Shown piece after piece: positions 14,623 to 61,550 of a stretch of 64,000 nt of DNA. Position numbers and translations under genes: made by a program. A model generated the notes under the pieces. That model was not told where the DNA came from. It was given only the letters and a program-made list of their open reading frames with translations, and searched no databases. Positions within the stretch are counted from its first letter, which is position 1. Every line of letters begins with the position of its first letter. Source of the stretch: a virus; IMG/VR virus record IMGVR_UViG_3300045988_150172; one strand, 5' to 3'.

Positions 14623-14630
14623 TATATTTG
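14623..14630 (+). promoter_or_regulatory. Bacteroidota-type -7 promoter box TATATTTG
   Basis: TATATTTGCG lies in the 39-nt gap before the 14656 ORF. The same octamer+CG recurs at 51686 and 53314. Confidence 0.45.
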
Positions 14631-14655
14631 CGTAAAAAGATAAATGGAGTAGATC

Positions 14656-28000: not shown

Positions 28001-28472
28001 GTGGGGGAAGGACTTGAATGATTCCTATTATCTTTTGTATGTTTATCGGGAACAGGGGCTTTCACACAATGAGCAGATAAATAAGATAGAATATTTGAAT
28101 ACTGTGTTTAAGCCGAATGAAATCGTGGTTGAGAATAACGGTTTTCAGTCTATTCTTGCTGACATGTGTGTTCAAAGGGGTATTAGGAATATTTTTCCGT
28201 TTACCACTACATCTGGAAATAAGAAAGATCTTAGAACAGGGTGGGCATCACTTGCGGCTTTGTTCGAAAGAGGTGACATACGATGCCCATATCATCCTGA
28301 CACACGACAGAAAATAGATACAATGTTTGGAGAATTTACATCCATTGCATTTCGACCTGATAGAGGTACATTGGAATCCATCAGTGGTCATGATGATACA
28401 GTATCATCCTCGTTTATGGCAATAAATAGATTACGTGAATCATCCGTTAGAATAAAGGTTGATTCAGTATAA
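25092..28472 (+). CDS. terminase large subunit interrupted by two inteins
   Basis: Exteins: YLAARSHGK|S P-loop. Nuclease motifs VVVGCDFAISG, VVENNGFQS, GHDDTVSS. The coding sequence stays in frame through both insertions. Confidence 0.85.
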   Translation: MIQFNENNKLSFRQLDSIIDTAIRIIQDLPIKAVNQLMEAYKGDQDAMLSEIFRQTENVLKLNTTLETERLSYVDQLTESMDDSLKIMSYNYFKTTMLPNFRQGWRNLEWGNMIQLYPNSGYLAARSHGKCFLAGTHILMADWTVKNVEDIYPGMEVMGMDFTPRKVLTRHIGAAQMFTVHQENGVSYTVNRFHILCLWDTKRKHYVEIPIGNFLKYPQEKQNRFRGYRVFSSAKPILEYSPITVEPYGYGSYYGFACDGDHKFLLEDNTVVHNSYEFCMAFPLWRMYSYRRPNFMKPDIPDNTNRKETCIITNTETLGKEHLDKVKEEIHSNEALTAVLNPNGKASLGATGFECENGTKLHLRGKDGFIRGLHVGAAVSDDLPDESSIYSLEQREKLKDLFKGAITPIVEPYGYNIVDGCVTPDTLVLTADGIKEIGRLAPVGLDSERGYYDWNGQTYNGQNLEEVSSYYVNGNTETIRVILDRGLELETSHVHPVLVCDVDGRFVWRKCEDLSVGDYVAVKIGADVWGKPLNIDREELYQMGMCVADGCLSGERITIAKKVDGIRKHFIDEQGWHPVKGTTHDDIHFRWYKQEKRELWHSFGYEYGLYSHTKYIPEKVLSASKADLCAFLSGYFDGDGCLTRNDRGRYHISCFSVSKRLIQQIQFVLLNMGIVSHVTYKKCQSTEKVKTDRMGYLLRISSQNMIQKFMREIGFPYSGKADKYVDSEVKVNNVCQYGVPYQRDLFKRIRKQIHLTDEDRKRFGLESFKTQNRTKISIYTVGEMQKLAEWVENSGLCNEDTSIFLSNAKLGYVFLPVKRLEQGQSVTVDFSMQETHSFVSNGIISHNTPYSERDLYYELKQDPKFKVFEYPAIFPDGRLLAPDRFTFDKLMEEKKSVGTLVFSREYLVVPISDDATIFPMEILMRSTIGMENVRLVDNIESFPFKLSRVVVGCDFAISGNVGADYTCYTVWGKDLNDSYYLLYVYREQGLSHNEQINKIEYLNTVFKPNEIVVENNGFQSILADMCVQRGIRNIFPFTTTSGNKKDLRTGWASLAALFERGDIRCPYHPDTRQKIDTMFGEFTSIAFRPDRGTLESISGHDDTVSSSFMAINRLRESSVRIKVDSV
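25482..25913 (+). mobile_element. mini-intein (144 aa, no endonuclease domain) inserted in the terminase Walker A loop
   Basis: Starts CFLAGTHIL, has block B TVNRFH, and ends ..DNTVVHN followed by Ser. Removing it restores GK|S. Confidence 0.8.
26352..27632 (+). mobile_element. full-length intein (427 aa) with LAGLIDADG homing endonuclease, in the terminase
   Basis: Starts CVTPDTLVLTADG, has block B ETSHVHP, LAGLIDADG motifs MGMCVADGC and LSGYFDGDGC, and ends NGIISHN|T. Confidence 0.85.
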
Positions 28473-36202: not shown

Positions 36203-36874
36203 ATGATGAAGATTCCAGTTGAAATATATGCCTTTGTTGGTGTAATAGGTTCAGGAAAGAGCCATCGTCTTGAACAGATGAAAAAGGAGTATAATGGCGA
36301 TGGTCAGGTTGTGATTACTGCTGATTTTTCCGATGGAATTCGTGATTTGACACGGCAGATATTTGGGTACAGTAGTGAATTTGGAGATGTAAATTCAGAA
36401 GAATATCGCGACTGGAAGAACAATGTTGTATGTGAATTTAGTGAGATGACTCCTTACGGTGTTATTGAAAATAAAATGAGGGGTAGGGAAATTCTGTGTC
36501 GTATTGGTGAGGGTGTAAAGAGTGTTGCAGGGGTGGATGTATGGGCTAGATACACAACAGCCAGAATTTATGATCAAGTATGCAAGCAGTCATTTCGTTC
36601 TGATGTCCGTGTGAATGGAGTGCGAGTATTGATTGGTTCCGTTCGGTTTAAGGATGAAGTTCAGTCTATTTTTCAACTATACAGGGATTTAATGGATAAG
36701 GCTCAATTCTTGGGTATGGAACCTCAGATTCATTTTATCTTCTGTGATTACCATTCACAGAGCTATGATGCTACAAGTCATCACATCAGTGAAGCATTTG
36801 CACAGGCAGTGATTAATTTGGGCAAGTATAAGGATGGGGATGATATTACTGAAATTGTAAATTACGTAGTATGA
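36203..36874 (+). CDS. P-loop deoxynucleoside-monophosphate kinase-like protein
   Basis: Walker A FVGVIGSGKSHR near the N-terminus. 223 aa. ATGA-coupled to the polymerase gene. Confidence 0.55.
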   Translation: MMKIPVEIYAFVGVIGSGKSHRLEQMKKEYNGDGQVVITADFSDGIRDLTRQIFGYSSEFGDVNSEEYRDWKNNVVCEFSEMTPYGVIENKMRGREILCRIGEGVKSVAGVDVWARYTTARIYDQVCKQSFRSDVRVNGVRVLIGSVRFKDEVQSIFQLYRDLMDKAQFLGMEPQIHFIFCDYHSQSYDATSHHISEAFAQAVINLGKYKDGDDITEIVNYVV

Positions 36875-38508
36875 GACAGGAATTTGAACAGTATCTTCAA
36901 AGGAATTTAATGTCGTATAAGGAAGTCAGTCCTTATGTGTACGAAATAGGCGGCAAGACATTTGAACTTTATAAGCCTGACAATGACGGTGCTCTGTTTG
37001 ATGACGACTTTAGGTTCACAGGCATTCCGGCCAACCCAGACAGATATACTTCTTCGGAGACCACCATTGACACCCAGTGTGATTTCTATGCCTATAAGTT
37101 CGGTGGTGTGTGGTATATGCTTCCGAAGGATGGACGGGATGGTGTAAAGCTAAGACGGCTGAAATATATTGGAGAAGCTGTGCAGGAGATTCCTACGCCT
37201 GTTTTTATGGGTGTTCATGGTCAGTATGAAATTATGTCAGGCTCTGGAACCTATGCTGATTGGTGTGCAAAGGCAAAATTCTATGGGGTGACCACGCTTG
37301 GTATTTGTGAGAAGAATACTCTGTCGGGTGCTTTGAAGTTTCAGGTGGAATGCCAGAAGAATGGTTTGAAGCCTGTTATCGGAATGGAGTGTACCGTATA
37401 TGATACAGTTAAGGACTTTAGGTTTACTGCCAAGGTGTTTGTAAGAAACGAAGTTGGGTGGCAGAGTTTACTTACCATGTCGGAAGCTATTAACTGTGAT
37501 AATCCAGGGTATATATCTATTGACCAGTTTAAGGATGAAATTAGCCGAAATGCTGATGGGCTGGTGGTAGTTGCAGACCCCAAGACGACCGACTATGATA
37601 CATTCGCTAAAATAGGTCTAAAAATCGGTTATTATCAACTTGATCCTGTTAGGTATGTGGAAGAGTCTCGCGATGAAGTATATTTGAAGAATCTGAGGAA
37701 ATTCTATCATAGTGGTATGCTTGCACTTCCTATGGTTGATGCGTGGTATCTAGACGAAGAATATAGCTGCATTAGAGCTAGGCTTGCGAGTATAGGTGGG
37801 TCCAACTTTTATGACAGTGATGACCAGTGGTTTAAGCCGAATGATGTATTGTTCTGTCAGCTTGCTGACATGTTCCCAAGCACGGATGATGGTCTGGGGC
37901 TTGCATATCAGGACTTTTTGGATGGGCTGGAAAGGTTGATGGATATTGCTGACAGTATTGATTTTACTGTGGACACAACCAAGAGACATCTTCCACGTTA
38001 CATTATGACGGAAGAGGAAGCAGCCAAGTATGCCACCAATGAGGACATGTTCTGGGGGCTTATTGATGAGGGACTTCAGCGGCATCCTGAACTGATTGAA
38101 CGGTACGGTGAGGATGTTGTGATGGAACGTATTGACAGGGAGGTTGGCGTAATTAAGCTGGGGGATACAATTGATTACTTCCTAATTACAAGGGATATCA
38201 TTAACTGGTGTCATCGTAATGGCATTATGACAGGGATTAGTCGTGGTTCAGCCGGAGGGTGTCTTATTTCGTATCTGTTGGCTATCACTAAATTGGATCC
38301 GATAGGCTATAATCTTCTTTTTGAGAGGTTCCTGAATGAGGGTCGTGTTGGTTATTGGAAGGATGAACAGATTGTTATTATTAGTTTTGAGGATGGTCGG
38401 CAGATGGAATTTGATTCCAAGAAAAAACTTGTTGTAGAACGTAACGGCCAACACATAGAATTATGTGCGAAGGATTTTGAAGTCGGGGACAATATACTTG
38501 CATATTGA
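36871..38508 (+). CDS. dnaE: DNA polymerase III alpha (DnaE-type), N-terminal segment; conserved sequence ends near 38349
   Basis: Degenerate PHP region, then ISRGSAGGCLISYLLAITKLDPIGYNLLFERFLNEGRV. The last 53 codons (VGYWKDEQ..NILAY*) have no DnaE counterpart. Confidence 0.85.
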   Translation: MRQEFEQYLQRNLMSYKEVSPYVYEIGGKTFELYKPDNDGALFDDDFRFTGIPANPDRYTSSETTIDTQCDFYAYKFGGVWYMLPKDGRDGVKLRRLKYIGEAVQEIPTPVFMGVHGQYEIMSGSGTYADWCAKAKFYGVTTLGICEKNTLSGALKFQVECQKNGLKPVIGMECTVYDTVKDFRFTAKVFVRNEVGWQSLLTMSEAINCDNPGYISIDQFKDEISRNADGLVVVADPKTTDYDTFAKIGLKIGYYQLDPVRYVEESRDEVYLKNLRKFYHSGMLALPMVDAWYLDEEYSCIRARLASIGGSNFYDSDDQWFKPNDVLFCQLADMFPSTDDGLGLAYQDFLDGLERLMDIADSIDFTVDTTKRHLPRYIMTEEEAAKYATNEDMFWGLIDEGLQRHPELIERYGEDVVMERIDREVGVIKLGDTIDYFLITRDIINWCHRNGIMTGISRGSAGGCLISYLLAITKLDPIGYNLLFERFLNEGRVGYWKDEQIVIISFEDGRQMEFDSKKKLVVERNGQHIELCAKDFEVGDNILAY

Positions 38509-38661: not shown

Positions 38662-41643
38662 AGTGAAATTGATGTAGATTTTCCCGGAGAAGACCGAGGA
38701 AAAGTCAAGCAGTATATGGAACAGCGTTTTGGTGAAGTTAATGTCTGTTCAGTGGGTACTTACTCCGCCTTGCAGTTAAGAGCGGCTATTAAGGACATGT
38801 CTCGTGTGTATGGGCTGGAGTTTCAGGAGGTGAATGACATGATGAAACTCTTTGGAGTGGATGATCGTAAGCCTGAAGACCTGTTTAGGATAGCCTGTGC
38901 TCAACCGCGTGTGAAGAAGTTCGTTAAGGATCACCCTGACTTGGTCAATGAGGTCATGCTGATTATGCCAGCACCAAAGGCACGTTCAGTTCACGCCTGT
39001 GCAACCATGATATTTCCAAAGGAGCATGATATGTTCCACTGGACGCCTATTCGTAAGCAGAATGGAGAATATGTGACTGAATGGGAGGGTGGTGAAATGG
39101 ACGGTGCTGGATTTTTGAAAAATGATATTCTGGGTATTAAACAGCTGGATAAGTTTCAGAATATGGTGCGTCTTGTGAAAGAGAATGAGGGTGTTGATGT
39201 GGACATTTTCAATGTACCGCTTGACGACCCAGAGGTTTATCGTTATTTTCAGAATGGCTGGACGGAAGATAATTTTCACTTTGGCTCACGTGGTTTGACA
39301 GGCTACTGTAAGGAGATGAAACCTGAAAACATAGAGGACTTGATTGCAGCTATTGCCCTGTATCGCCCTGGAGCAATGGAGAACGGTTTCCATACGGAGT
39401 ATGTTAAGCGTAAGGAGGGTGCGCCTGTAAGTTACTTTGTAGGTTCCGAAGAAATTCTCTCTAATACTTATGGGATTTTTTGTATTTCGGAAGATAGCGA
39501 TGTGCTGACTGAAAGAGGTCTTGTTAAGATTCAGGATATCATTCCTGGAAAGGACAGAGTTAAAACAGAGGATGGTTCTTTTCAGACAGTCTATTTGAAG
39601 AAGGATAATGGTGTTAGAGATGTCGTTGAAGTCCAAACAGGCTTTGGGCGGCCAGTGCTCTGCACCCCTAATCATAAGTTTCTAACAAGAGAACGTGGTT
39701 GGCAGGAAGCACAGAATTTGCGACACAATGAGGAAATTGTATGTTATTTTGAACAACCGTTAAGAAAGGATGATCTAACTGAAAGGGAATGTCTTGAACA
39801 TTGGCTGTTAGGGTATTTTCTTGCAGAGGGTAGTTGTGGTTCATCTCCATATTTTACTGTTACCAATAAGGAAGTTGCTGAAAAGGTGTCTCAGATTATA
39901 TTGAAACTCTTTCCATCTATGATGGTAGGTATTAAGGAGAAAAAGACTGTTCATAAATCAGGTAGGATTGGTATAACAACACGAGTATATGTGAGACAGA
40001 AGAATGGCAACAATGGCTATTTTAATGCGAATTATGAACCTAATCAGTTTATTGTTTGGTTGAAAAAATGGGGTGTTTGGGGTCAGAGCTGTTATACCAA
40101 GAGACTTCCTAAAGATTATTCCTTGGACATGATTGTTGGTCTATTGGAGGGTGACGGCTGTATGAAGAATTATACTTTGCGTCTTTGTAATAAGGAACTT
40201 TCTATGGATGTTTATATGGGGTTGCAGTCTTACGGGATTCAGTCTTCATATAAAATTAGTAAGAGTGGAATACCTGTTGTAAGTTGGAATGACTTGAATC
40301 AAGAGTTTAATCTTAGATTGTTTAGTCATAAAAAATTGGTAAGACCGTCGACAGTACATTCTGGTTATGGTAGGGTTCGTTCTATTACTCCTATGGGGGC
40401 ACGGAGAGTGTATGATTTGAGTGTGGATAATGTTCATAGTTTTGTTGTAAATGGCTGTGTTGTAGCGAATTGCTTCCAGGAACAAATTATGGAATTGTGT
40501 AAGTGCTTGGGTGGGCTTTCACTTGTGGAAGCTGATGATGTGCGAAAGGCTATGGTGAAGAAGAAGTATGAAGCACTTCACCAGTATCATCCACGATTTG
40601 TCGACAACTACGTGACACAGTTCGGTGTGACGAATGAATATGCTGAAAATGTGTGGGATGCTATTGACAAGGCTTCCACCTATCTGTTCAACCGTTCTCA
40701 TGCTGTTGCCTATGCTCTTACAGGTTATATCTCACAGTGGATGAAAGTTCATTATCCGATAGAATACTGGAGTGTGGCATTTAAGGAAGCAACAACAGAT
40801 GACTATCCTCGTTATATTGCTGAGATCAATAAGACAGGGGTCTGTACCGTAAAACCTGTGGACATTAATCTGTCAGGAACAGGTGTGTATATTGACTTTG
40901 CGGCGAAGACGCTTTATTGGTCAGTTACAGGTGTGAAACAGGTTGCCGACAAGGCAGCAACGCAGATACTCAAGGAACGGGACGAAAATGGTAGGTACTG
41001 GTCTCTTGATGACTTTGTAACTCGACACAAGTGGAAGGGTTCTGCTGTGAACACAAGGGTTGTGCAGAATCTAATTCTTGCAGGTGCATTTGATGCAGTA
41101 GAGAACATTACTGATGCCCCACAGAGGGTGGAACTGCTGATATCCTATTTAGCTTCCACGAAAAACAAGCTGAATGGGGAGGATCCTATTATAGCAGGGT
41201 TTGACAATCACAGGAATGATGCTTGGTGGTGGCAGCTTATGCAGAAGAAGCTTTCAGGGCTTGCATTCTTTGATTATAGTAGTATCTATGAAAAGGTGAA
41301 GCAGTTCTTTCCTGACGGTTATGAATATCACACATTTGAGGACTGTAATGATGTTGAATATCGTCCTAACAGGGGTTATGTGATTGTTGGGGGTTATGTG
41401 TCTGCAATAGACCTTAAAAAGACTAAAAAAGGAGATGTTCTGTGTCGCATTACACTGGAAAATAATTATGAGTTCCTGGATTTGGTGGTATTTCAGTCAG
41501 AATATGAACGTCTTCAGGAGGAAATTACGGCAAGCAAGGATAATATTGTGCTTTTGAATGCAACGCTCTACTATGATGCACGAAATGATAGAAATGCCTT
41601 ACGTGCTGACATGGAGACCAATATGGTGACATTTAAGTTATAG
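38662..41643 (+). CDS. dnaE: DNA polymerase III alpha, C-terminal segment (first ATG only at 38716)
   Basis: The open frame upstream of the ATG reads SEIDVDFPGEDRGKVKQYMEQRFG.., which is the catalytic PDxDxDF region. Downstream motifs: YRPGAME, FQEQIMEL, FNRSHAVAYAL. Confidence 0.85.
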   Translation, partial: SEIDVDFPGEDRGKVKQYMEQRFGEVNVCSVGTYSALQLRAAIKDMSRVYGLEFQEVNDMMKLFGVDDRKPEDLFRIACAQPRVKKFVKDHPDLVNEVMLIMPAPKARSVHACATMIFPKEHDMFHWTPIRKQNGEYVTEWEGGEMDGAGFLKNDILGIKQLDKFQNMVRLVKENEGVDVDIFNVPLDDPEVYRYFQNGWTEDNFHFGSRGLTGYCKEMKPENIEDLIAAIALYRPGAMENGFHTEYVKRKEGAPVSYFVGSEEILSNTYGIFCISEDSDVLTERGLVKIQDIIPGKDRVKTEDGSFQTVYLKKDNGVRDVVEVQTGFGRPVLCTPNHKFLTRERGWQEAQNLRHNEEIVCYFEQPLRKDDLTERECLEHWLLGYFLAEGSCGSSPYFTVTNKEVAEKVSQIILKLFPSMMVGIKEKKTVHKSGRIGITTRVYVRQKNGNNGYFNANYEPNQFIVWLKKWGVWGQSCYTKRLPKDYSLDMIVGLLEGDGCMKNYTLRLCNKELSMDVYMGLQSYGIQSSYKISKSGIPVVSWNDLNQEFNLRLFSHKKLVRPSTVHSGYGRVRSITPMGARRVYDLSVDNVHSFVVNGCVVANCFQEQIMELCKCLGGLSLVEADDVRKAMVKKKYEALHQYHPRFVDNYVTQFGVTNEYAENVWDAIDKASTYLFNRSHAVAYALTGYISQWMKVHYPIEYWSVAFKEATTDDYPRYIAEINKTGVCTVKPVDINLSGTGVYIDFAAKTLYWSVTGVKQVADKAATQILKERDENGRYWSLDDFVTRHKWKGSAVNTRVVQNLILAGAFDAVENITDAPQRVELLISYLASTKNKLNGEDPIIAGFDNHRNDAWWWQLMQKKLSGLAFFDYSSIYEKVKQFFPDGYEYHTFEDCNDVEYRPNRGYVIVGGYVSAIDLKKTKKGDVLCRITLENNYEFLDLVVFQSEYERLQEEITASKDNIVLLNATLYYDARNDRNALRADMETNMVTFKL
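39481..40470 (+). mobile_element. intein (330 aa) with LAGLIDADG endonuclease in dnaE
   Basis: Starts CISEDSDVLTERG, has block B CTPNHKF, LAGLIDADG motifs LLGYFLAEGSC and IVGLLEGDGC, and ends VYDLSVDNVHSFVVNGCVVAN|C. Removal restores TYGIF-CFQEQIM. Confidence 0.85.
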
Positions 41644-49723: not shown

Positions 49724-50341
49724 ATGGATACGACACAGATTGTAAATTCAGCTATTGACACAGGCAAGGCGATTGGTGATGTTGGCATGATGGCTATTAC
49801 GGCCGGATTTTTTTTGGTTCTTTCTGGAATCCTTATGGTGGTGTGCTTTAAGTGGTTCATTAAACTTATTAACAGCATGATGGAGGATCAAAAGCGAACC
49901 ATGGAAGAACTTCTAAAGGAAACGCGCGATCAGAATTCAAAGCTTGCAGAACTGTCAGAATGTCTTACTCCTGAAAATCAGCTAAAGACAAAAGTGATTT
50001 CGAATGCTTTCTTTGACCTAGGTATTGAAAAGGTCTGTCGCGTCATTAAAAAGGTTAGAGTGGAAAACCACATCATTGATAAGGAAGCAACAACGGCAAA
50101 GGTTCATAAATTGCTGAAAAATTTGCATGATGATAGGAACAGTAAACTGGATTCGTTTGCCTATTTAGGCAGACCTCTTTCAAGTTATACTGATGAAAAG
50201 TGGGTTGCCAAGGTTGCAGAAGTCGTTCTTAGTGAAATTTACAATGAAAATGGAGTTAATGATGAAAGAGCCAATACGAACGTTACAGCCGTGTACGATC
50301 AGATAAAGTTGGACTTCTATAGTAATATGATGCAGAGATAA
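49724..50341 (+). CDS. membrane-anchored coiled-coil protein
   Basis: Transmembrane segment GMMAITAGFFLVLSGILMVVCF near the N-terminus. Confidence 0.5.
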   Translation: MDTTQIVNSAIDTGKAIGDVGMMAITAGFFLVLSGILMVVCFKWFIKLINSMMEDQKRTMEELLKETRDQNSKLAELSECLTPENQLKTKVISNAFFDLGIEKVCRVIKKVRVENHIIDKEATTAKVHKLLKNLHDDRNSKLDSFAYLGRPLSSYTDEKWVAKVAEVVLSEIYNENGVNDERANTNVTAVYDQIKLDFYSNMMQR

Positions 50342-50343
50342 TT

Positions 50344-51414
50344 ATGAGTCTTTTTGAATTTATAGCTAAATCACGTTCAGGTGTCTATAAGGATACTTCA
50401 GAAAATCGTAGACTTCATCGTGTAGGCCAGCGTTATGGTGCAATTCAACAGATTGTTGATGAGGGGGAACTTGTTCCTGGAATGCCTAATTCGACAAAGG
50501 TGAATCTGAAGAAGTACCTTTCAGGTAAGATGAAGCACCAAGTAGATGCATATATTAATGCACTAAAGGTTACTCCTGCTTGGAATGATATTGAGAAGCT
50601 TCGTGCTGTGACTAAAGCTTATCAGGATATGTTTAATGGCAGTTTTGATTCCTTGTCTAAAAGCAATAGAGCTCTTTTTGTTGAAATTGTTAAAAGACTT
50701 CAGAATAGAATTGCTGAACTTGGTGATGCGAAGAAACCTGATAATGCTGTTGTTACGACAAATGTGGGCACAAAATCTAAATTTGAACAGGCGGCTGAAA
50801 AGGCTGGTTTTGAACGTGGTGAGCCGATGTCTATTGATTTGGCTGATGATAAACATGCCAATCCTAAATATATGAAATCAGTTGATGGAAGTTTTCGTCC
50901 ATATACTTGTAATTGTCAGACATGCGTTGTTGCCTATGAACTTAGACGTAGAGGTTATGATGTAGAAGCAATGGGTGCTGGTGTTCAAAAGGGTTTTATT
51001 AATGAATATCAACACTCACTTGCACTTGATAGCACAAATGCCTTTTTGGGAATATCATTTAAGCGTTCTACATTAAATTGGAATAATTCAATTAAGAGTA
51101 ATACACCTAAAGGTCGTCGTGAGTATGTTGCTAATCTGTTTGATGCAACAAAAGAAGAGGGTCGGTATTTCCTTTCCATGAAAAATAGAAGAAGATCTAC
51201 TGGACACATTGTTGTAGTGGAATCCACTGAGGATGGTGGAAAACTTTTAGTTGATCCTCAATCTGGGGAAAGGATTAATCTTACTGATGGTGCTGCCGTT
51301 GATAAATACTTTTCTAGAGTAGATGTTAAGCATCTCTATAATAAAGTATTTAGGGTTGATAATCTGGAATTTAATCCTGCCGTGTTTACCGTTGTAACTA
51401 AAAATTCTGAATAA
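50344..51414 (+). CDS. leader-bearing cargo protein A1 with Cys/His papain-fold-like C-terminal domain
   Basis: The N-terminus MSLFEFIAKSRSGVYKDTSENRRLHRVGQRYG is shared with 51712. The C-terminal CNCQTCVVAYELRRRGYDVEA ... STGHIVVVE resembles, from memory, toxin-type domains found at the ends of MuF/gp7 head proteins. Confidence 0.55.
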   Translation: MSLFEFIAKSRSGVYKDTSENRRLHRVGQRYGAIQQIVDEGELVPGMPNSTKVNLKKYLSGKMKHQVDAYINALKVTPAWNDIEKLRAVTKAYQDMFNGSFDSLSKSNRALFVEIVKRLQNRIAELGDAKKPDNAVVTTNVGTKSKFEQAAEKAGFERGEPMSIDLADDKHANPKYMKSVDGSFRPYTCNCQTCVVAYELRRRGYDVEAMGAGVQKGFINEYQHSLALDSTNAFLGISFKRSTLNWNNSIKSNTPKGRREYVANLFDATKEEGRYFLSMKNRRRSTGHIVVVESTEDGGKLLVDPQSGERINLTDGAAVDKYFSRVDVKHLYNKVFRVDNLEFNPAVFTVVTKNSE

Positions 51415-51416
51415 AA

Positions 51417-51653
51417 ATGATTGCTGAAAAGGACATATTGAAGATCTGTGAAGCAGCAGGTTGGAAAGGTGGAGAACTTCTTTATGGAGGTTTTGCCGAT
51501 GGAAAGTATTACGTATCCTATGGTGGTAAGAGTGAGGATGGTGTTATTCTGCTAGTGGGAGATCCTATAATTCTCATTGTAGAAAATGGTGTGTGTAGGG
51601 TTGCTACTGATAGTGAAAGGGTTTATTTTTATGAAAATTTCGTGAAAGATTAA
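51417..51653 (+). CDS. small protein B1 (paralog of frameshifted 52688..52925)
   Basis: 78 aa: DILKICEAAGW..LLYGGFADGKYYVSYG..PIILIVENGVCRVATDSERVYFYENFVKD. Confidence 0.55.
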   Translation: MIAEKDILKICEAAGWKGGELLYGGFADGKYYVSYGGKSEDGVILLVGDPIILIVENGVCRVATDSERVYFYENFVKD

Positions 51654-51662
51654 GGAATAATC

Positions 51663-51693
51663 CTTGGATATTTCAGAAAAGTGATTATATTTG
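51663..51693 (+). promoter_or_regulatory. Bacteroidota-type promoter (CTTG -33 / TATATTTG -7, 19-nt spacer)
   Basis: cttggatatttcagaaaagtgatTATATTTGcg. Aligns with the 42475 promoter. Confidence 0.6.
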
Positions 51694-51711
51694 CGTTATA
51701 AAATTTAGGCT

Positions 51712-52440
51712 ATGGGCTTGTTTGAATACATAATTAAAGCTAAATCTGGTGTTTATAAGGATAATCCAGAGAATAGACGACTGCATAGGGCTGGATTACA
51801 ATATGGTCAGAAAAAGCAGCAGGAAAGCGTTCCTGATGTAAACAAGGAGGATTTTGAACTTGCGGAAGCAAAGGTCGAGAAAATGCTTGCCGTGAAACAG
51901 AACTTTGATAATGTTTCACAGGCTGTGTGTATGGAGGTTGGTTGTATTGTCTCCCCTACCAACATTAAAAAGCCCATAAGGATTGCTCAGAAAATGGCTT
52001 CTGATAATTCTACTATTGATGATATTAAGGATGTTATGCGTAACACCTTTGTTGTTAATAGTGACGCTGATGTTGGCAAGGTTATAGAAGTCATATCCAA
52101 GCATTATAAAGTCGTTAGAGTAAAGCGTCAAATGCCTGACAAGTTCGCTGGTTATAGTGGCAATATTGTCAATGTGGAGCTTCCTAATGGTGAAATTGGT
52201 GAAATGCAGGTGAACACGCCACAAATGATATTTGGTAAGGAGGTTGAACGTGATGCTAGAATGATTCTGGGTGATAGTCTATGGGAACGATTAAAGGCCA
52301 ATGCAGGAAACCTTATCCCTGGACTTGGTCATAGGATGTATGAGGTGCTTCGGGATGATTCCATTGACGATGAAAGACTTGATATTGTTGAACGCAATAG
52401 TAGAATTTATTATGATAGAATTAGAAAGATTTCGCTATGA
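51712..52440 (+). CDS. leader-bearing cargo protein A2 with divergent RelA/SpoT-like nucleotidyltransferase domain
   Basis: The N-terminus MGLFEYIIKAKSGVYKDNPENRRLHRAGLQYG matches A1 at about 22 of 32 residues. IKDVMRNTFVV.. / GYSGNIVNVELPNGEIGEMQVNT parallels D.aG.RiiV / GYrSlHl.v....vEiQiRT. Confidence 0.5.
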   Translation: MGLFEYIIKAKSGVYKDNPENRRLHRAGLQYGQKKQQESVPDVNKEDFELAEAKVEKMLAVKQNFDNVSQAVCMEVGCIVSPTNIKKPIRIAQKMASDNSTIDDIKDVMRNTFVVNSDADVGKVIEVISKHYKVVRVKRQMPDKFAGYSGNIVNVELPNGEIGEMQVNTPQMIFGKEVERDARMILGDSLWERLKANAGNLIPGLGHRMYEVLRDDSIDDERLDIVERNSRIYYDRIRKISL

Positions 52441-52685
52441 GAACAGTAACTAACAAGGAACTGGGGGAGTTGCTCCGTTCCAATGAAATGGTCTATCTAT
52501 TAGACGACACCGATGAAATTGCATGGGGGTTTCTTGGTGAAGGAAAGAACCGTAGAAGAGTGGTAAGCAAGGCAAAGGGAAGAGAGCCTTTCGAGCACAA
52601 CCCAAAGCAGCAGAACTCCAACAGTATGATCCGTGCCTATATGAATAAGGATGTGATGACAAAGGAGGAATTTGAAAATTACTGA
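52437..52685 (+). CDS. small hypothetical protein ATGA-coupled to A2
   Basis: 82-aa ORF. Confidence 0.45.
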   Translation: MRTVTNKELGELLRSNEMVYLLDDTDEIAWGFLGEGKNRRRVVSKAKGREPFEHNPKQQNSNSMIRAYMNKDVMTKEEFENY

Positions 52686-52687
52686 AT

Positions 52688-52925
52688 ATGTGTGAGCGAA
52701 AGAATGACATATTAAAGGTCTGTCAATCGGCAGGTTATACAGAGGGAAACCTCATCTATGGTGGTTTTTGTCAATGGGAAACATTATGTGTCCTACGGGC
52801 AGGATGATGCGGAGGAACTCCAATGTGTAGGTGCTCCTGTCATTCTGATAGTAGAGAACGGTCTATGCAGAATTGCCACTGATGATGAACGAAATTACTT
52901 TTATAGATTTCTTGTGAAAGATTAA
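52688..52925 (+). pseudogene. B2, paralog of 51417..51653 disrupted by a +1 shift in a T5 run
   Basis: Frame 1 gives MCERKNDILKVCQSAGYTEGNLIYGGF. After skipping one T of ttttt (52765..52769) the reading is VNGKHYVSYG..PVILIVENGLCRIATDDERNYFYRFLVKD*. The total is 78 aa, the same as B1. Confidence 0.6.
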
Positions 52926-52968
52926 GGATGGTTATTGTATATGCGTTTCTGACAGAGTTAAAGACTAT

Positions 52969-53268
52969 ATGGAAATGAAAAATGATTTCGCGAAGTCCAT
53001 TCTTGACAACCCTTATAACAGGGTTGAGGGTGGCCAGAAGATTGAATTGTTCAATGTTCTGTCCAAGTACAGGTATCAGCGTCAGAATAGGCAGTTGACC
53101 ACCTATGTTGCGTATGCCGAGGATCTTGGAATAACCAAGGAGGAAGCTGTGGCTTACCAGAATTGGATAAACGACGGCAATCCGACAGGCATTGAGTCCG
53201 ATGAGCAGTTTTATGAGATTCAGAAACAGGTATATGGCAAGGTTGTTATAAAATTGTCGTGGCTTTAA
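52969..53268 (+). CDS. hypothetical protein
   Basis: 99-aa ORF. No motif. Confidence 0.4.
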   Translation: MEMKNDFAKSILDNPYNRVEGGQKIELFNVLSKYRYQRQNRQLTTYVAYAEDLGITKEEAVAYQNWINDGNPTGIESDEQFYEIQKQVYGKVVIKLSWL

Positions 53269-53290
53269 TTGATTTTTCATGGGTTATTCT

Positions 53291-53321
53291 TTTGGAAATT
53301 CAAGAACAACGACTATATTTG
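53291..53321 (+). promoter_or_regulatory. Bacteroidota-type promoter (TTTG -33 / TATATTTG -7, 19-nt spacer)
   Basis: tttggaaattcaagaacaacgacTATATTTGcg. Confidence 0.6.
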
Positions 53322-53333
53322 CGTTGTAAAATT

Positions 53334-53352
53334 AAAAATGATTTTGTTATGA
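53334..53352 (+). promoter_or_regulatory. leader cassette AAAAATGATTTTGTTATGA (mini-ORF MILL* overlapping the start codon)
   Basis: Mini-ORF at 53338..53352. The gene's ATG is at 53349. Confidence 0.6.
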
Positions 53353-53798
53353 ACATGGTTGTTAAATCTAAAGATCAGTTTCGTCTGGCTACTGAAATCG
53401 CAGTTCAGGCACACAATGGGCAGGTTGATAAGAATGGAGTTCCGTATATCTGTCATCCTATTGCTGTTGCTAATAAATGTTCACTTCCAATAGCCAAGTG
53501 TATTGCTATGCTTCATGATGTGCTGGAAGATACAAAAGTTACAGCAACAGATTTGATTGGTATGGGTGTTGACCCATATATTGTTGAATGTGTGGGGAAG
53601 CTGACACACAGAAAAGGCACTCCATATTTGGACTATATTCAAAGTATAATTGATACAGGAATCTATAACGTTATCAGGGTGAAGTACGCTGACTTATGTG
53701 ACAATCTTGATCCTGCGAGGGGTGGTTTGAACGAGCGGAAGATGCCTTTGTATCTTAAGGCTAAAAGAATGTTGGAGGAAGCGTTATGTCGTGTATAG
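53349..53798 (+). CDS. HD-domain small alarmone hydrolase-like protein (SpoT/Mesh1 hydrolase fold)
   Basis: AVQAHNGQVDKNGVPYICHPIAVA ... AMLHDVLEDT ... VKYADLCDNL match H.GQ.rk.g.PYi.HP / LHDv.EDT / k.aDr..N. Confidence 0.7.
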   Translation: MNMVVKSKDQFRLATEIAVQAHNGQVDKNGVPYICHPIAVANKCSLPIAKCIAMLHDVLEDTKVTATDLIGMGVDPYIVECVGKLTHRKGTPYLDYIQSIIDTGIYNVIRVKYADLCDNLDPARGGLNERKMPLYLKAKRMLEEALCRV

Positions 53799-55711
53799 AA
53801 CTAAGAAATGAAATCCTCCGTTTGAATTCTCTGTATAGGCAAGGTAAGCCGGAGGTCAGTGATGTTGAGTACGATTCACTTGTGGAGCAGCTGAGAGCTA
53901 TATCTCCTGATGATGACTTCTTCAAGTCGGGTGTTGCTGAAAAGGCAACAGATAGAATGCAGAAGCTTCCCCTTCCTATGTTTTCTCTGGAGAAAATAAA
54001 GACGTTTAAGGAGTTTTTGACGTGGGTTGATAGGATGGCTAGGGCTGGGTGTAAAAATCTCGTAATAACGCCTAAATACGATGGAATAAGTCTTCTTGTT
54101 AGTGAACTGTCACAGGCTGCCTGGACAAGGGGTGACGGTGTGCAGGGTCAGCGAAGCGATGCACACTTTTCACGAATGAAGAATGGTGAGGTTGAACAGC
54201 CTGTGTTTGAATATACATGGGGTGAAGCCATCTGTTCTAAAAAGGATTTTGAATCCGTTAAGGGTGAGTATAAGAATGTTCGCAACATGGTTGCAGGTCT
54301 GTTCAACTCTCCTATGGGGGCTAATACGGAACAGATAGGGGCTGTGACCTTTGTAAGGTACGGTATTGATTCTGATGAAAATAAATCCGTTCAACTGGAT
54401 TATCTTAATGGTCGTTACCAATACACTACACCATATAGACTGATACAGATTGAAAACATTCTTATGTATAATGAGAATGATGTGCTGGGTATGTTGGATA
54501 GGCTTTATAGAGAATGGAAGTTGGCATATCAGATAGACGGCCTAGTGATTGAGGTTGATGAAAACAGTGTTCGAAAGAAGTTGGGTCGCAAGCCAAATGG
54601 AAATCCTGACTATGCCGTTGCATTTAAGAGGGAGGAATGGTTGCAGTCCTATACAACAACCGTGGAAAAGGTTGAATGGAATGTTAGCAAGGATGGCTGT
54701 CTGTGTCCTGTGGTATGCGTAAAGCCTGTTGAGATGGAGGGTGCTACCGTGTCCAAGGTAACAGGATATAATGCTAAATACATTCTTGACAATCATATTG
54801 CAGGTGGTTCCACGATAGACATTATTCGTAGTGGTGACGTTATTCCAAAGCATATTAGAACGCTTGGTTATTCTACGGAAACATGTTCAAAGGAATTTCC
54901 TGCTGTCTGTCCATGCTGTGGCAAGCCTGTTCAATGGGATGCGACGCATACCGAGCTTGTATGTACGAATAAGAATTGTAGGCAACAGGTTATTTCCAGA
55001 ATGGTGTACTTTTTCAGAACAATGGGTTGTGAGGGTTTTGATGAACCTATCGTGCGTCGCCTGTATGACGCTGGAATGGATAGTATCCAGCTTGTCGTGG
55101 CGAGCAGGTCATTGGCATTTATGCACGTACTTGGAGAGAATAAGGGGTTGGCTGTATATAATGAGATCTGGAATAAGGTGCTTAATACAAAAAATCCTGT
55201 TGCAAGACTTATGACCGCATATAATGTGTTTGAGGGTGTTCTTGCTGAAAAGACAGCTCAAAGCATTATAGATGGAAGTGAAGCAGTTCAATATCTGTTG
55301 CGTTTCGGTATCAATCAACCTATGAGAGACAAGGATATTTTGGCAGTTCTTCACGAGGAGCTCTGTTCCATCTCTGGTGTGGGTGCTGTTACGGCTGACA
55401 CATTCATTACAGGCATGAATAAGTTCTTGGATATGAGGTGTCTGTATCCCTATTACACCTGCACCCCTAAGAAAAATTTGGCTGATAACTGTATGTATGT
55501 CTGCATGACAGGTTTTAGAGATAAGGAACTGGAGAATGAGCTTATAAAACAGGGGCACGAAGTTTTGAGCGGTGTTACGGCCAAATGTACTGTTCTTGTG
55601 GTGGCTGACTTGAATTCAACAAGCAGTAAGATGCAAAAGGCTCAGAAAATGGGAATTCGTATTGTGGACAGAAAGACATTTGAAGATGAAATATACAGCA
55701 ATAAGGGATAA
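53786..55711 (+). CDS. ligA: NAD+-dependent DNA ligase
   Basis: N-terminal YRQGKPEVSDVEYDSL (Ia domain), KYDG adenylation lysine motif, DGLVIEVD, Zn finger CPCCGKPV..CTNKNC, BRCT-like C-terminus. Confidence 0.9.
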   Translation: MSCIELRNEILRLNSLYRQGKPEVSDVEYDSLVEQLRAISPDDDFFKSGVAEKATDRMQKLPLPMFSLEKIKTFKEFLTWVDRMARAGCKNLVITPKYDGISLLVSELSQAAWTRGDGVQGQRSDAHFSRMKNGEVEQPVFEYTWGEAICSKKDFESVKGEYKNVRNMVAGLFNSPMGANTEQIGAVTFVRYGIDSDENKSVQLDYLNGRYQYTTPYRLIQIENILMYNENDVLGMLDRLYREWKLAYQIDGLVIEVDENSVRKKLGRKPNGNPDYAVAFKREEWLQSYTTTVEKVEWNVSKDGCLCPVVCVKPVEMEGATVSKVTGYNAKYILDNHIAGGSTIDIIRSGDVIPKHIRTLGYSTETCSKEFPAVCPCCGKPVQWDATHTELVCTNKNCRQQVISRMVYFFRTMGCEGFDEPIVRRLYDAGMDSIQLVVASRSLAFMHVLGENKGLAVYNEIWNKVLNTKNPVARLMTAYNVFEGVLAEKTAQSIIDGSEAVQYLLRFGINQPMRDKDILAVLHEELCSISGVGAVTADTFITGMNKFLDMRCLYPYYTCTPKKNLADNCMYVCMTGFRDKELENELIKQGHEVLSGVTAKCTVLVVADLNSTSSKMQKAQKMGIRIVDRKTFEDEIYSNKG

Positions 55712-59921: not shown

Positions 59922-61550
59922 ATGAATACAAAGATTTTGTTTGGAAAGGACGCTAGAGGTGCACTTCTAGCTGGAGCTGAAGAACTTTATTCAGCAGTAG
60001 CATCCACCCTCGGACCGCGAGGTCATACGGTTGCGATTGACAAGGGGTATGGAATTCCACACATCACGAAGGACGGTGTGACGGTTGCTCGTGCCTATGA
60101 CACTGATGATCCTATGAAACGAATGGGCGCGACACTTGTGAAGATGGTGGCTGCGAAGACATGTGATCAAGCAGGTGATGGAACAACTACGGCTACGATT
60201 CTGTCCTATGCTATGATGAAGCGTGGTGTGTCTGGATCTGTAAATATTCAAAACCCACACGAATATCGTAGGGGCATGGAGGATGCTAGGGATGAAGCCA
60301 TCAACTATATCAAGGGGTGTGCTGTAAAGATTGCCCCTGATGAGATTGATAGAATTAGACAGGTGGCTAGGATATCTGCCAATGGGGATGATATGGTTGC
60401 AGACCTCATAACGTCAGCAATTGACAGTGTTGGCAATGACGGTATCATTACCGTGGAGGAAAGTCCTAAAGGTGATGAATCTACCGTTGAAGTTACAACT
60501 GGCTTCCAATGGAGTAAGGGGATTATAAATCCATATTTTGTTACCGACAGTGAGCGAATGGAGTGTGTTCTGGATAAGCCGTATGTTCTTATCTGGGGTC
60601 AGAACATCAATTATGTTCAGGAGATTCTTGCTGTGGTGCAGACTGTATATACAGCCAAGAGATCCCTTTTGATTGTGGCTCCAAATGCCTCCAATGACGT
60701 GATAAAGTTTCTCGTCACAAACGTTCAGCAAAACAACGGTCTAAAGGCATGTTTTGTAAAGGCTCCAGGATTCGGTCAGATGCAGAAGGACTTGATGCAG
60801 GACTTGGCTGTAAAGGTGGGCGGCAAAATTGTTGGTGAGGAATACGGTAACGCCATTGAGTCATTTGGAACTGACTGGCTTGGTGAAGTGGACAAGGCCA
60901 CAATTTCAGCAAACAGAACAGTTCTTGTCGGTGGTGCTGGTAGGACAGGTGATATAGAAGCAAGAATAGAATTCATTAAGAATGAAATGGCTGAAAATTT
61001 CAACACCTATGACAGAGAGAAGTATAGAGAGCGTATTAGCCGTCTTACAGGTGGTGCTGCCGTCATCTATGTTGGGGCTGATTCTGAAGTTGAGTTGAAG
61101 GAGCGCAAGGATAGAGTTGATGATGCTATTGCAGCCACTAGAGCAGCACTTGATGAGGGGTATGTTCCTGGAGGGGGAACGATTCAATACAAGTTGGCAA
61201 AGTTTTTGGACGGATCCCTGAAGAGCAACCCTAGCTGGAACCCTGACTATGTGGAGGGCTACCGTGCTGTAATTGATGCCCTGATGGAACATTTTAACAC
61301 ATTGTGCTTGAATGCAGGTGTTGAACCGATAAGAATTGAGGTGTTAATGGATTTAAGATCCAAGGAGTTACAGTATGGATATAATCCATTTAAGAATAAG
61401 GTTGAGGACATGTATAAGGCTGGTATCATAGACCCTGCAAAGGTAACAAGAGCATCTCTTGAAAATGCTGTTTCCGTGGCCGTTCAATTTCTTGGCATGT
61501 CGTGTGCCATGTCAGCGGATGAAAGTACAATAACCAACAATAAACCATAA
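59922..61550 (+). CDS. groL: GroEL-type chaperonin
   Basis: FGKDARGALLAGAEELYSAVASTLGPRGHTVAIDK..ITKDGVTVAR..AGDGTTTATIL is collinear with bacterial GroEL. 542 aa. Confidence 0.9.
   Translation: MNTKILFGKDARGALLAGAEELYSAVASTLGPRGHTVAIDKGYGIPHITKDGVTVARAYDTDDPMKRMGATLVKMVAAKTCDQAGDGTTTATILSYAMMKRGVSGSVNIQNPHEYRRGMEDARDEAINYIKGCAVKIAPDEIDRIRQVARISANGDDMVADLITSAIDSVGNDGIITVEESPKGDESTVEVTTGFQWSKGIINPYFVTDSERMECVLDKPYVLIWGQNINYVQEILAVVQTVYTAKRSLLIVAPNASNDVIKFLVTNVQQNNGLKACFVKAPGFGQMQKDLMQDLAVKVGGKIVGEEYGNAIESFGTDWLGEVDKATISANRTVLVGGAGRTGDIEARIEFIKNEMAENFNTYDREKYRERISRLTGGAAVIYVGADSEVELKERKDRVDDAIAATRAALDEGYVPGGGTIQYKLAKFLDGSLKSNPSWNPDYVEGYRAVIDALMEHFNTLCLNAGVEPIRIEVLMDLRSKELQYGYNPFKNKVEDMYKAGIIDPAKVTRASLENAVSVAVQFLGMSCAMSADESTITNNKP

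Follow-up and report, generated by a model that had tools for sequence, protein, structure and literature searches.

Predicted (p)ppApp toxin and antidote genes in an exchangeable cassette of an apparently virulent Bacteroidota phage

Introduction

Why should a phage encode both a toxin-like nucleotide pyrophosphokinase and, less than a kilobase downstream, an enzyme expected to undo its product? This question is raised by a 64,000-nucleotide stretch of viral DNA (IMG/VR record IMGVR_UViG_3300045988_150172; hereafter the window), in which an initial annotation made from the sequence alone described a RelA/SpoT-like synthetase (A2), a small open reading frame (ORF) overlapping its end (orf82), and an HD-domain hydrolase (HD) further downstream. 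All of these ORFs and their motifs were found where that annotation had placed them. A comparable linkage was demonstrated experimentally in a temperate phage of Bacteroides caccae, which carries the (p)ppApp synthetase toxin MuF-Apk2 together with BcTis1 and Aph1 (Ahmad et al. 2023, PMC10083569). BcTis1 blocks the active site of Apk2 and Aph1 degrades the product, each protecting partly and the two together fully, and the same paper left open whether phage (p)ppApp toxins are carried in the virion and what purpose they serve (PMC10083569).

Here, we report that the A2–orf82–HD trio is a variant of the known Apk2–Tis1–Aph1 system, and that a hypervariable toxin hot spot between the gene orf205 and a NAD-dependent ligase gene contains this locus as one of its cassettes. 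Domains were searched for in Pfam, PHROGs, and NCBIfam, PDB sequences were searched with phmmer, and AlphaFold2 models were compared using Foldseek. The related loci compared are numbered L001-L085, and related proteins carry P-numbers.

A Tas1/Apk-type synthetase

Searched against the RelA_SpoT profile of Pfam (PF04607), A2 (242 aa, containing IKDVMRNTFVV...GYSGNIVNVELPNGEIGEMQVNTPQM) scored 25.0 bits against a cut-off of 27 bits (E 2.5e-5, profile positions 3-102 of 113), and its close homologues P0001-P0003, P0005, P0006, and P0008 carry a precomputed PF04607 assignment. Among PDB sequences, residues 57-239 of A2 align to residues 255-435 of Tas1 (6OX6_A) with E 8.3e-18. The AlphaFold2 model of A2, with a predicted local distance difference test score (pLDDT) of 80 and values mostly >85 for residues 45-242, matches the same chain with a template modelling (TM) score of 0.83 and a root-mean-square deviation of 2.8 Å at 33% identity (E 1.6e-10). 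The next Foldseek matches are Rel, small alarmone synthetase, and CapRel structures, all with E 4e-6 or worse, TM <=0.62, and 11-20% identity; for CapRel, the values are 13-14% identity, TM 0.31, and E 1e-4. Sequence and fold thus both bear out the initial annotation, which had classed A2 as a pyrophosphokinase of the RelA/SpoT homologue (RSH) type.

The motifs in which A2 departs from canonical RSH enzymes, QVNT for QIRT and GYSG.I for GY.S.H, are common to Tas1 (QVNS, GYSG). In 11 homologues, down to 37% identity, K86, K94, D107-x-x-R110, G147-Y-S-G150, the catalytic E164-x-Q166, and H207-x-x-Y210 are all invariant and align with the same residues of Tas1, and homologues at 86-98% identity keep the motifs unchanged. 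The functional roles of these residues are well established for RSH synthetases. The initial annotation had suggested that the unusual residues might change the substrate; because the Tas1/Apk (p)ppApp synthetases have these very residues, the acceptor is likely to be ATP/ADP, one of the options it had named. A2 is best regarded as an enzyme of the Tas1/Apk family, and (p)ppApp synthesis, predicted from its sequence and model, is its best-supported activity.

A2 and Tas1/Apk1 of Pseudomonas aeruginosa (PDB 6OX6), which acts with Tis1, thus have homologous toxin domains and show the same departures from the RSH motifs, QVN[ST]P and GYSG. They differ in context, Tas1 being delivered by PAAR and the type VI secretion system, whereas A2 is found in a phage next to a different small protein. 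We know of no hydrolase partner of Tas1 in P. aeruginosa. Neither a PAAR nor a MuF domain was found in A2 in Pfam, PHROGs, or NCBIfam, and its sole PHROG match is with a head-morphogenesis family, confined to the toxin part at the C-terminus of that family.

An Aph1-like hydrolase

The HD ORF, which ends at 53798, carries the motifs HNGQ..PYICHP, LHDVLEDT, and ADLCDN. As listed, it starts at GTG 53259, which we judge less likely than ATG 53349, since a start at the latter, 35 nt past a promoter-like box, yields a protein of 149 aa. From this start, the gene begins 909 nt past the end of A2, in agreement with the roughly 900 nt first reported.

HD matches phrog_990 (E 2.8e-39), and residues 12-143 of its 149 align to the PDB entry 7SMG, "(p)ppApp hydrolase" (Aph1, likewise 149 aa), with E 5.4e-21, compared with ~1e-7 for Rel/SpoT hydrolase domains. 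Its earlier description as a small alarmone hydrolase therefore stands, whereas the SpoT/Mesh1 type has to be replaced by Aph1 as the closest relative. The signature of the Aph1 family comprises D24, R96, D116, R119, K133, and Y134, of which D24 and R119 were linked to adenine specificity (PMC10083569). HD keeps four of the six (D24, D116, R119, and Y134), with S in place of R96 and L in place of K133, and Aph1 residues K25 and N114 are also conserved. We predict from these comparisons that HD is an Aph1-type, (p)ppApp-specific enzyme, and the joint assignment of A2 as a (p)ppApp synthetase toxin and HD as a (p)ppApp hydrolase appears highly probable.

The hydrolase gene is present in nearly all relatives examined, including those with a Zeta toxin or without a second toxin at the site. 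The proposed logic of a toxin countered by a hydrolase antidote has a demonstrated precedent in Apk2 and Aph1 (PMC10083569), but HD cannot be regarded as private to A2, as toxin-less relatives keep it.

A candidate immunity protein

The start of orf82 (82 aa) overlaps the A2 stop codon through the sequence ATGA. No match to orf82 was found in Pfam, PHROGs, NCBIfam, or PDB sequences, and its high-confidence model (pLDDT 86, predicted TM score 0.75) gave no Foldseek match below E 0.3 in a library that includes the 6OX6 complex with its immunity chain. A homologue of Tis1 was considered and ruled out by sequence search and predicted fold. Since orf82 resembles neither Tis1 nor solved structures, an immunity role is deduced for it entirely from linkage.

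This linkage extends to divergent lineages. In L003, an orf82 homologue follows a 38%-identical A2 homologue and overlaps it likewise (BLASTP E 1e-7 end to end, hhalign 90%), and the toxin–small protein arrangement recurs in L006/L007 and in L003-5/L013-15, the latter group being 38% identical to the window in the toxin and 26% in the small protein. L006 and L007, which are close relatives, have A2, orf82, and HD contiguous in this order, the same as in the B. caccae phage; L003, of a distant lineage, has HD, the A2 homologue, and the orf82 homologue next to one another. The ratio of nonsynonymous to synonymous substitution rates (dN/dS) of orf82 is 0.02-0.34 at dS 0.16-0.80, indicating strong purifying selection. 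As expected of a cognate immunity gene, orf82 lies immediately downstream of the toxin gene and is co-inherited and co-diverging with it. The stop-codon overlap, the co-inheritance with a divergent toxin, and the purifying selection make orf82 the best candidate for immunity, and it is probably the cognate protein immunity of A2. The initial annotation had listed this ORF as an alternative antidote candidate; these comparisons rank it first for the protein immunity.

Like the B. caccae system, the window holds a phage-encoded Tas1-like toxin, small protein, and Aph1-type hydrolase, in a host of the same phylum. However, A2 carries a 35-aa leader instead of a MuF domain, orf82 is unrelated to BcTis1, and the phage is a ~100-kb myovirus with its own replication genes, in which no integrase was detected among the 20 large ORFs tested. 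Further, the hydrolase, encoded in a tricistron in the Aph1 case, is here near-universal among the relatives examined and has its own promoter-like element, and A2 is one of several exchangeable toxin heads.

Promoter-like elements and cassette exchange

The features of the locus are listed in Table 1. An identical 12-mer, TATATTTGCGTT, precedes A2 and HD and contains a TAnnTTTG box; within 64 kb, it has three matches at <=1 mismatch, compared with 0.49 expected. TAnnTTTG is the Bacteroidetes -7 consensus. In the relative L006, too, the region upstream of HD matches the sequence upstream of A2. The HD gene thus has a promoter-like box of its own, in line with the initial annotation, but the near-identity of the two elements suggests that A2 and HD are co-expressed and argues against the timed, staggered manipulation of the host that had been envisaged. 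The third copy, with one mismatch (TATATTTGCGTA), is found at 14623-14634 upstream of ORF 14656 in the tail/baseplate region.

Table 1. Features of the toxin locus, with positions in the window.
Feature	Coordinates	Strand	Description
orf205	49724..50341	+	Left border of the variable toxin hot spot; phrog_19698, function unknown
A1	50344..51414	+	Leader, then "PNS.KVNLKKYL" middle module, then papain-fold glutamine-deamidase toxin domain
78-aa gene	51417..51653	+	Always after A1; candidate A1 immunity
Promoter-like element TATATTTGCGTT	51686..51697	+	26 nt before A2 start
A2	51712..52440	+	Leader and Tas1/Apk-like (p)ppApp synthetase toxin domain (aa 57-242), predicted
A2 leader motif, aa 1-35 (MGLFEYIIKAKSGVYKDNPENRRLHRAGLQYGQKK)	51712..51816	+	Shared with Zeta-toxin proteins of relatives
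Recombinant segment	51795..52957	+	Replaces Zeta-toxin body of the closest relative, L008
orf82	52437..52685	+	ATGA overlap with A2; candidate protein immunity
Second copy of the 78-aa family, frameshifted	52688..52928	+	55-aa ORF 52758-52925 is its 3' part
"Zeta tail", 99-aa ORF	52969..53268	+	C-terminal 99 aa of relatives' leader-Zeta protein, here free-standing
Promoter-like element TATATTTGCGTT	53314..53325	+	35 nt before HD start
HD gene	53349..53798	+	Aph1-like HD small alarmone hydrolase, predicted (p)ppApp-specific
NAD-dependent ligase	53786-55711	+	Downstream of HD gene; SNF2 helicase follows

A homologue of orf205 (56-93% identity) precedes the variable region in every variant of the ligase-proximal locus. 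Between orf205 and the ligase gene, we found the orders A1-78aa-Zeta-HD, A1-78aa-A2-orf82-HD, and A1-78aa-HD; a distant lineage has HD-A2-orf82 homologues and an unrelated 81-aa gene at this site, and in L062, a Zeta-like gene is present and HD was not detected. The flanks of the window locus are 95.7% identical to those of L008, the closest relative, which is of the Zeta type. Relative to L008, the left breakpoint falls inside the leader, at codon ~28, and the right one is found 11 nt ahead of the start codon (ATG) of the tail ORF, whose protein shares 98% identity with the C-terminal 99 aa of the Zeta protein in L008. By this alignment, recombination within the leader introduced the toxin body of A2. 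In its HD gene, the window shares 98% identity with the Zeta-type L008 but only 72% with the A2-type L006; hence, the hydrolase belongs to the backbone, whereas the A2-orf82 pair was brought in.

Because the Zeta tail and the frameshifted 78-aa copy fill it, the 900-nt gap between orf82 and HD reads as a recombination scar, made up of a frameshifted small gene and the tail of the displaced Zeta-toxin gene. The second 78-aa copy is 69% identical to the first copy in DNA and has one extra T in a T-run, absent from the intact L084 and L085 copies; the L076 copy has a frameshift of independent origin, and that in the window is possibly an assembly error. The Zeta tail is also free-standing in L076 (5527-5814) and L084 (8529-8825), as it is in the window, and its dN/dS is 0.06-0.30, including comparisons between bacterial copies (ω 0.15). 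Possibly the tail functions as a module of its own, for example as an antidote to Zeta encoded in cis.

The toxin domain of A1 was recognized by a match of residues 190-308 to Pfam Gln_amidase (E 1.2e-11). The 78-aa gene sits behind an A1 homologue in L001, L006, and L008-L011 and has no family match in Pfam, PHROGs, or NCBIfam; its position directly after A1 makes it a candidate A1 immunity gene.

The leader motif family

A1 and A2 are alike only in their first ~35 residues (MxLFE[FY]I.K..SGVYKD..ENRRLHR.G..YG), and the A2 leader, predicted to be disordered (pLDDT 31-51), is 77-89% identical to the leader of the 417-aa Zeta-toxin proteins of relatives. A 40-column profile of this leader recovered 835 representative clusters at E <=1e-3 among 1.84 billion proteins, and a scan of IMG/VR recovered 69 loci, on contigs mostly of 55-113 kb. 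The leader is usually N-terminal, at times internal or doubled. Domains found among 103 leader representatives include NUDIX, Gln_amidase, DUF5661, Kinase-PolyVal, Zeta_toxin, and ADPrib_exo_Tox, the same repertoire as in phage polyvalent proteins and MuF toxins; proteins of these kinds are predicted to be carried into the cell along with the DNA (PMC5512222).

In about 55 of the 69 viral loci, the leader gene lies directly upstream of a gene for a 229-aa protein (p229) and the portal gene, and about 11 are at the ligase-proximal site, as in the window. The middle module of A1 is common to portal-proximal leader proteins. Primarily because of this positional link to the head module, we tentatively propose that the leader is a virion-delivery tag and that the attached toxin acts in trans, although we place this suggestion slightly on the doubtful side. 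For alarmone-synthetase toxins, the route of export is known to be determined by the N-terminal domain (PMC12691689). The L-x-E start of the leader may resemble the capsid-targeting and protease site of T4.

MuF toxins and polyvalent proteins offer the closest architectural parallel, as they too combine a conserved N-terminal module with interchangeable heads, among them RelA/SpoT, ADP-ribosyltransferase, Zeta, kinase, and deamidase domains, are often encoded near the portal gene, and are predicted to be co-injected with DNA (PMC5512222; PMC10083569). In contrast, the leader described here is short and apparently disordered, the leader proteins are small and single-headed, and a second hot spot exists in the replication module.

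The conserved head-module site consists of genes for a p589-type protein, a variable leader protein, the 229-aa protein, and the portal (L046, 3362-7646; also L012, L016, and L018-L074). We considered p589 and p229 as MuF or other known head proteins and dropped this assignment, as neither has a match in PHROGs, Pfam, or NCBIfam.

Several variants of the leader were recorded. Leader-only ORFs of 35-69 aa are common (P0028-P0045; L019 and L065) and are probably remnants of cassette exchange; a word-indexed protein search with the leader profile yielded short ORFs of this type and nothing else. Proteins of 800-870 aa join a NUDIX domain with two leader motifs (L026, 1769-4381; P0057), and P0057 also has a weak acetyltransferase match (E 0.003, under the Pfam cut-off). 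The leader core, Y.DN..NR.LGRVG, occurs in 8-13 tandem copies in P0046, P0047, P0049, and P0055, in the Ser/Thr-rich N-terminal regions of eukaryote-like protein kinases (Pkinase E 5e-51). This core motif has no Pfam family, and a literature search for the string LGRVG returned nothing relevant.

Toxin-free islands in Bacteroidales chromosomes

Homologues of orf82 form 76 clusters at 82-99% identity, many of them on clearly bacterial contigs, where the neighbours include a thioredoxin-reductase-like gene, BamD, the RNA polymerase omega subunit, a RecN-like gene, LolA, Fe-ADH, and glycosyltransferases. Two of the orf82-bearing contigs belong to metagenome-assembled genomes (MAGs) named Bacteroidales and Muribaculaceae. 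The bacterial island has the order GIY-YIG-type gene, three small genes (two of them exported-looking), 159-aa HD hydrolase, orf82, 78-aa-family gene, and Zeta tail. Its hydrolase is 37% identical to HD of the window and overlaps the start of orf82, and the island orf82 is 88-95% identical in protein sequence to that of the window. Over window positions 52434-53264, the DNA identity to the island is 85.7%, the similarity beginning 3 nt before the orf82 ATG and ending 4 nt before the end of the tail ORF. The GC content of the island (0.43-0.44) is lower than that of its flanks (0.49-0.53) and closer to that of the phage (0.40).

No A2, A1, or Zeta toxin domain was found within the 5-8 kb of island flanks examined. 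In a deletion variant, the hydrolase is lost and orf82 is intact. The simplest reading of these alignments is that Bacteroidales acquired non-toxin modules of the hot spot, presumably from the phage, to serve as putative orphan immunity, which suggests that bacteria captured phage antidotes.

Toxin-free arrays of immunity-type genes have precedents in the acquired interbacterial defence (AID) and rAID-1 clusters, which are likewise low-GC, chromosomal, and found in gut Bacteroidales (Ross et al., bioRxiv 10.1101/471110). The island, however, matches a phage hot spot and not type VI secretion loci. A XerD recombinase is the defining feature of rAID-1, whereas no integrase or recombinase family was recorded within 5 kb of orf82 in L076-L083 and a GIY-YIG-type gene heads the array, so that we rejected classification of the island as rAID-1.

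The deletion is marked in L080 (4823-5017) by a 64-aa ORF in which the N-terminal part of a 176-aa island gene is joined to the C-terminal part of the HD hydrolase, with loss of three genes and most of the hydrolase and with orf82 intact. In the Muribaculaceae MAG island (L085, 2887-3291), the Zeta tail is followed by a fragment resembling the C-terminal end of the phage HD protein (44% over 50 aa) and by another 78-aa-family copy; here, more of the hot spot was captured.

Proposed mechanism and alternatives

As the best overall explanation, which we consider somewhat more probable than its competitors combined, we propose a delivered A2 toxin with orf82 and HD as its antidotes, encoded in exchangeable leader cassettes. 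A2 would transfer pyrophosphate from ATP to the 3'-OH of ATP, ADP, or AMP, making (p)ppApp and draining the ATP pool; orf82, translationally coupled to A2, would bind and block it; and the Aph1-like HD would act as an enzymatic antidote by hydrolysing (p)ppApp back to usable nucleotides. The 35-aa leader would place toxins in the virion, so that they could act in trans on the cell being infected and later be turned off by the antidotes that the phage encodes. The same leader could double as a recombination site for the exchange of toxin and immunity bodies. Action in trans is favoured, we infer, by relatives that lack A2 and keep the hydrolase and by chromosomes that hold antidote modules without the toxin.

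Several observations weigh against this explanation. The RelA_SpoT score of A2 is 2 bits below the Pfam cut-off, and two residues of the Aph1 signature, R96 and K133, are changed in HD. The hydrolase is lineage-fixed and could serve another purpose, such as countering host toxic small alarmone synthetases (toxSAS) or (p)ppApp signalling. orf82 is unlike Tis1 and any solved structure. Finally, the leader matches no characterized packaging signal, and A1 and A2 sit in the replication module behind vegetative-looking promoters, outside the head module.

The last of these points would be accounted for if A2 and orf82 formed an intracellular toxSAS module of type II, made only in the infected cell and serving phage–phage competition, superinfection exclusion, or genome addiction, with the leader acting as a recombination handle or regulatory peptide and nothing being packaged. 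The toxin and small-protein genes overlap in a bicistron behind a vegetative-type promoter, leader-only orphan ORFs and breakpoints located within the leader are compatible with a recombination role, and phage toxSAS pairs are known, for instance Phrann PhRel as cited in PMC12691689. The toxSAS modules FaRel/ATfaRel, CapRel, and PhRel resemble the locus in that an RSH toxin is neutralized by an adjacent protein or a small alarmone hydrolase; they differ in that A2 is much closer to Tas1 and shares its leader with non-RSH toxins. A leader that is conserved as protein in 835 clusters, can be internal or repeated, and is mostly found beside the portal gene is harder to reconcile with purely intracellular action, and the retention of antidotes in toxin-less phages and bacterial chromosomes is easier to understand if the toxin comes from outside. 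We regard this alternative as unlikely, though still the most serious competitor.

It is more doubtful again that A2 and HD serve host takeover, in which early A2 would collapse host ATP and purine metabolism and stop the host from growing, the Aph1-like enzyme would recycle the product for the phage, and orf82 would be a regulator, with no intercellular conflict involved. RelA/SpoT domains of phages have indeed been predicted to shut down host transcription and translation (PMC5512222), the phage has its own replication and nucleotide genes, and A2 and HD share near-identical promoter-like elements. However, A2 is dispensable, its place in close relatives being taken by a Zeta toxin or by nothing, ATP depletion would also hurt phage replication, and the toxin-free immunity island in bacteria would be left unexplained.

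Pyrophosphorylation of tRNA by A2, with HD removing the modification, is improbable: the RSH toxin fold is shared, CapRel was matched at E 1e-4, and some toxSAS act on tRNA (toxSAS literature), but A2 is far nearer to Tas1 (33% identity, TM 0.83) than to CapRel (13-14%, TM 0.31), and the adjacent hydrolase is closest to the (p)ppApp-specific Aph1. A decaying mosaic, in which A2, orf82, and HD currently do not cooperate, would suit the frameshifted 78-aa copy and the orphan Zeta tail between orf82 and HD but can be dismissed as extremely improbable, with all three genes intact, motifs invariant in homologues at 86-98% identity, and orf82 and the Zeta tail under purifying selection.

Implications

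The trio varies a system already described in 2023; what the locus adds is the leader motif, the record of cassette exchange, a new candidate immunity protein, and the toxin-free antidote island. It would extend (p)ppApp warfare, so far seen in prophages and type VI secretion, to large gut phages that appear to be lytic. It also offers a handle on the virion question, with a minimal 35-aa putative tag and natural near-isogenic variants on ~96% identical backbones that differ in carrying A2, a Zeta toxin, or no second toxin. Antidotes kept without the toxin in chromosomes provide population-genetic evidence of a toxin met from outside, and orf82 is a candidate new immunity family.

More speculatively, and rather unlikely in full, the leader could mark a large undescribed family of phage cargo with exchangeable heads ((p)ppApp synthetase, glutamine deamidase, Zeta kinase, and ADP-ribosyltransferase) that is packaged near the portal and injected, with Bacteroidales capturing the antidotes as defence. 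If true, this would be an anti-phage defence by immunity capture, analogous to the AID clusters directed against type VI secretion.

The phage and its other genes

All genes of the window are on the + strand, and its GC content is ~40%. The gene set includes a tail sheath, baseplate wedge, large terminase, DnaB, primase, and a split DNA polymerase, as well as SbcCD, RecA, ThyX, RNase H, and GroEL, and no integrase was detected among the 20 large ORFs tested. The relatives of this phage are 98-108 kb in size, and, judged by the sheath protein, the nearest phages in culture are those of Chryseobacterium (35% identity) and Bacteroides thetaiotaomicron (26%). The source is apparently a large (~100-kb), virulent Bacteroidota myovirus. 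A crAss-like phage was first suspected from the contig sizes and was ruled out by the tail sheath and baseplate matches. DNA and protein searches of GenBank phages returned just one 3% DNA match and one 31% protein match, both to unannotated records.

Among the other genes, the DNA polymerase is split into ORFs 36871-38508 and 38716-41643, which match different parts of phrog_405, and the large terminase ORF (25092-28472) encodes 1126 aa with extra N-terminal regions. The GroEL-type chaperonin is encoded at 59922-61550 (phrog_5725, E 4e-138). In the relatives, UvrD of L003 contains an intein, and in L004, a GIY-YIG/NUMOD3 homing endonuclease gene sits between the ligase and SNF2 genes.

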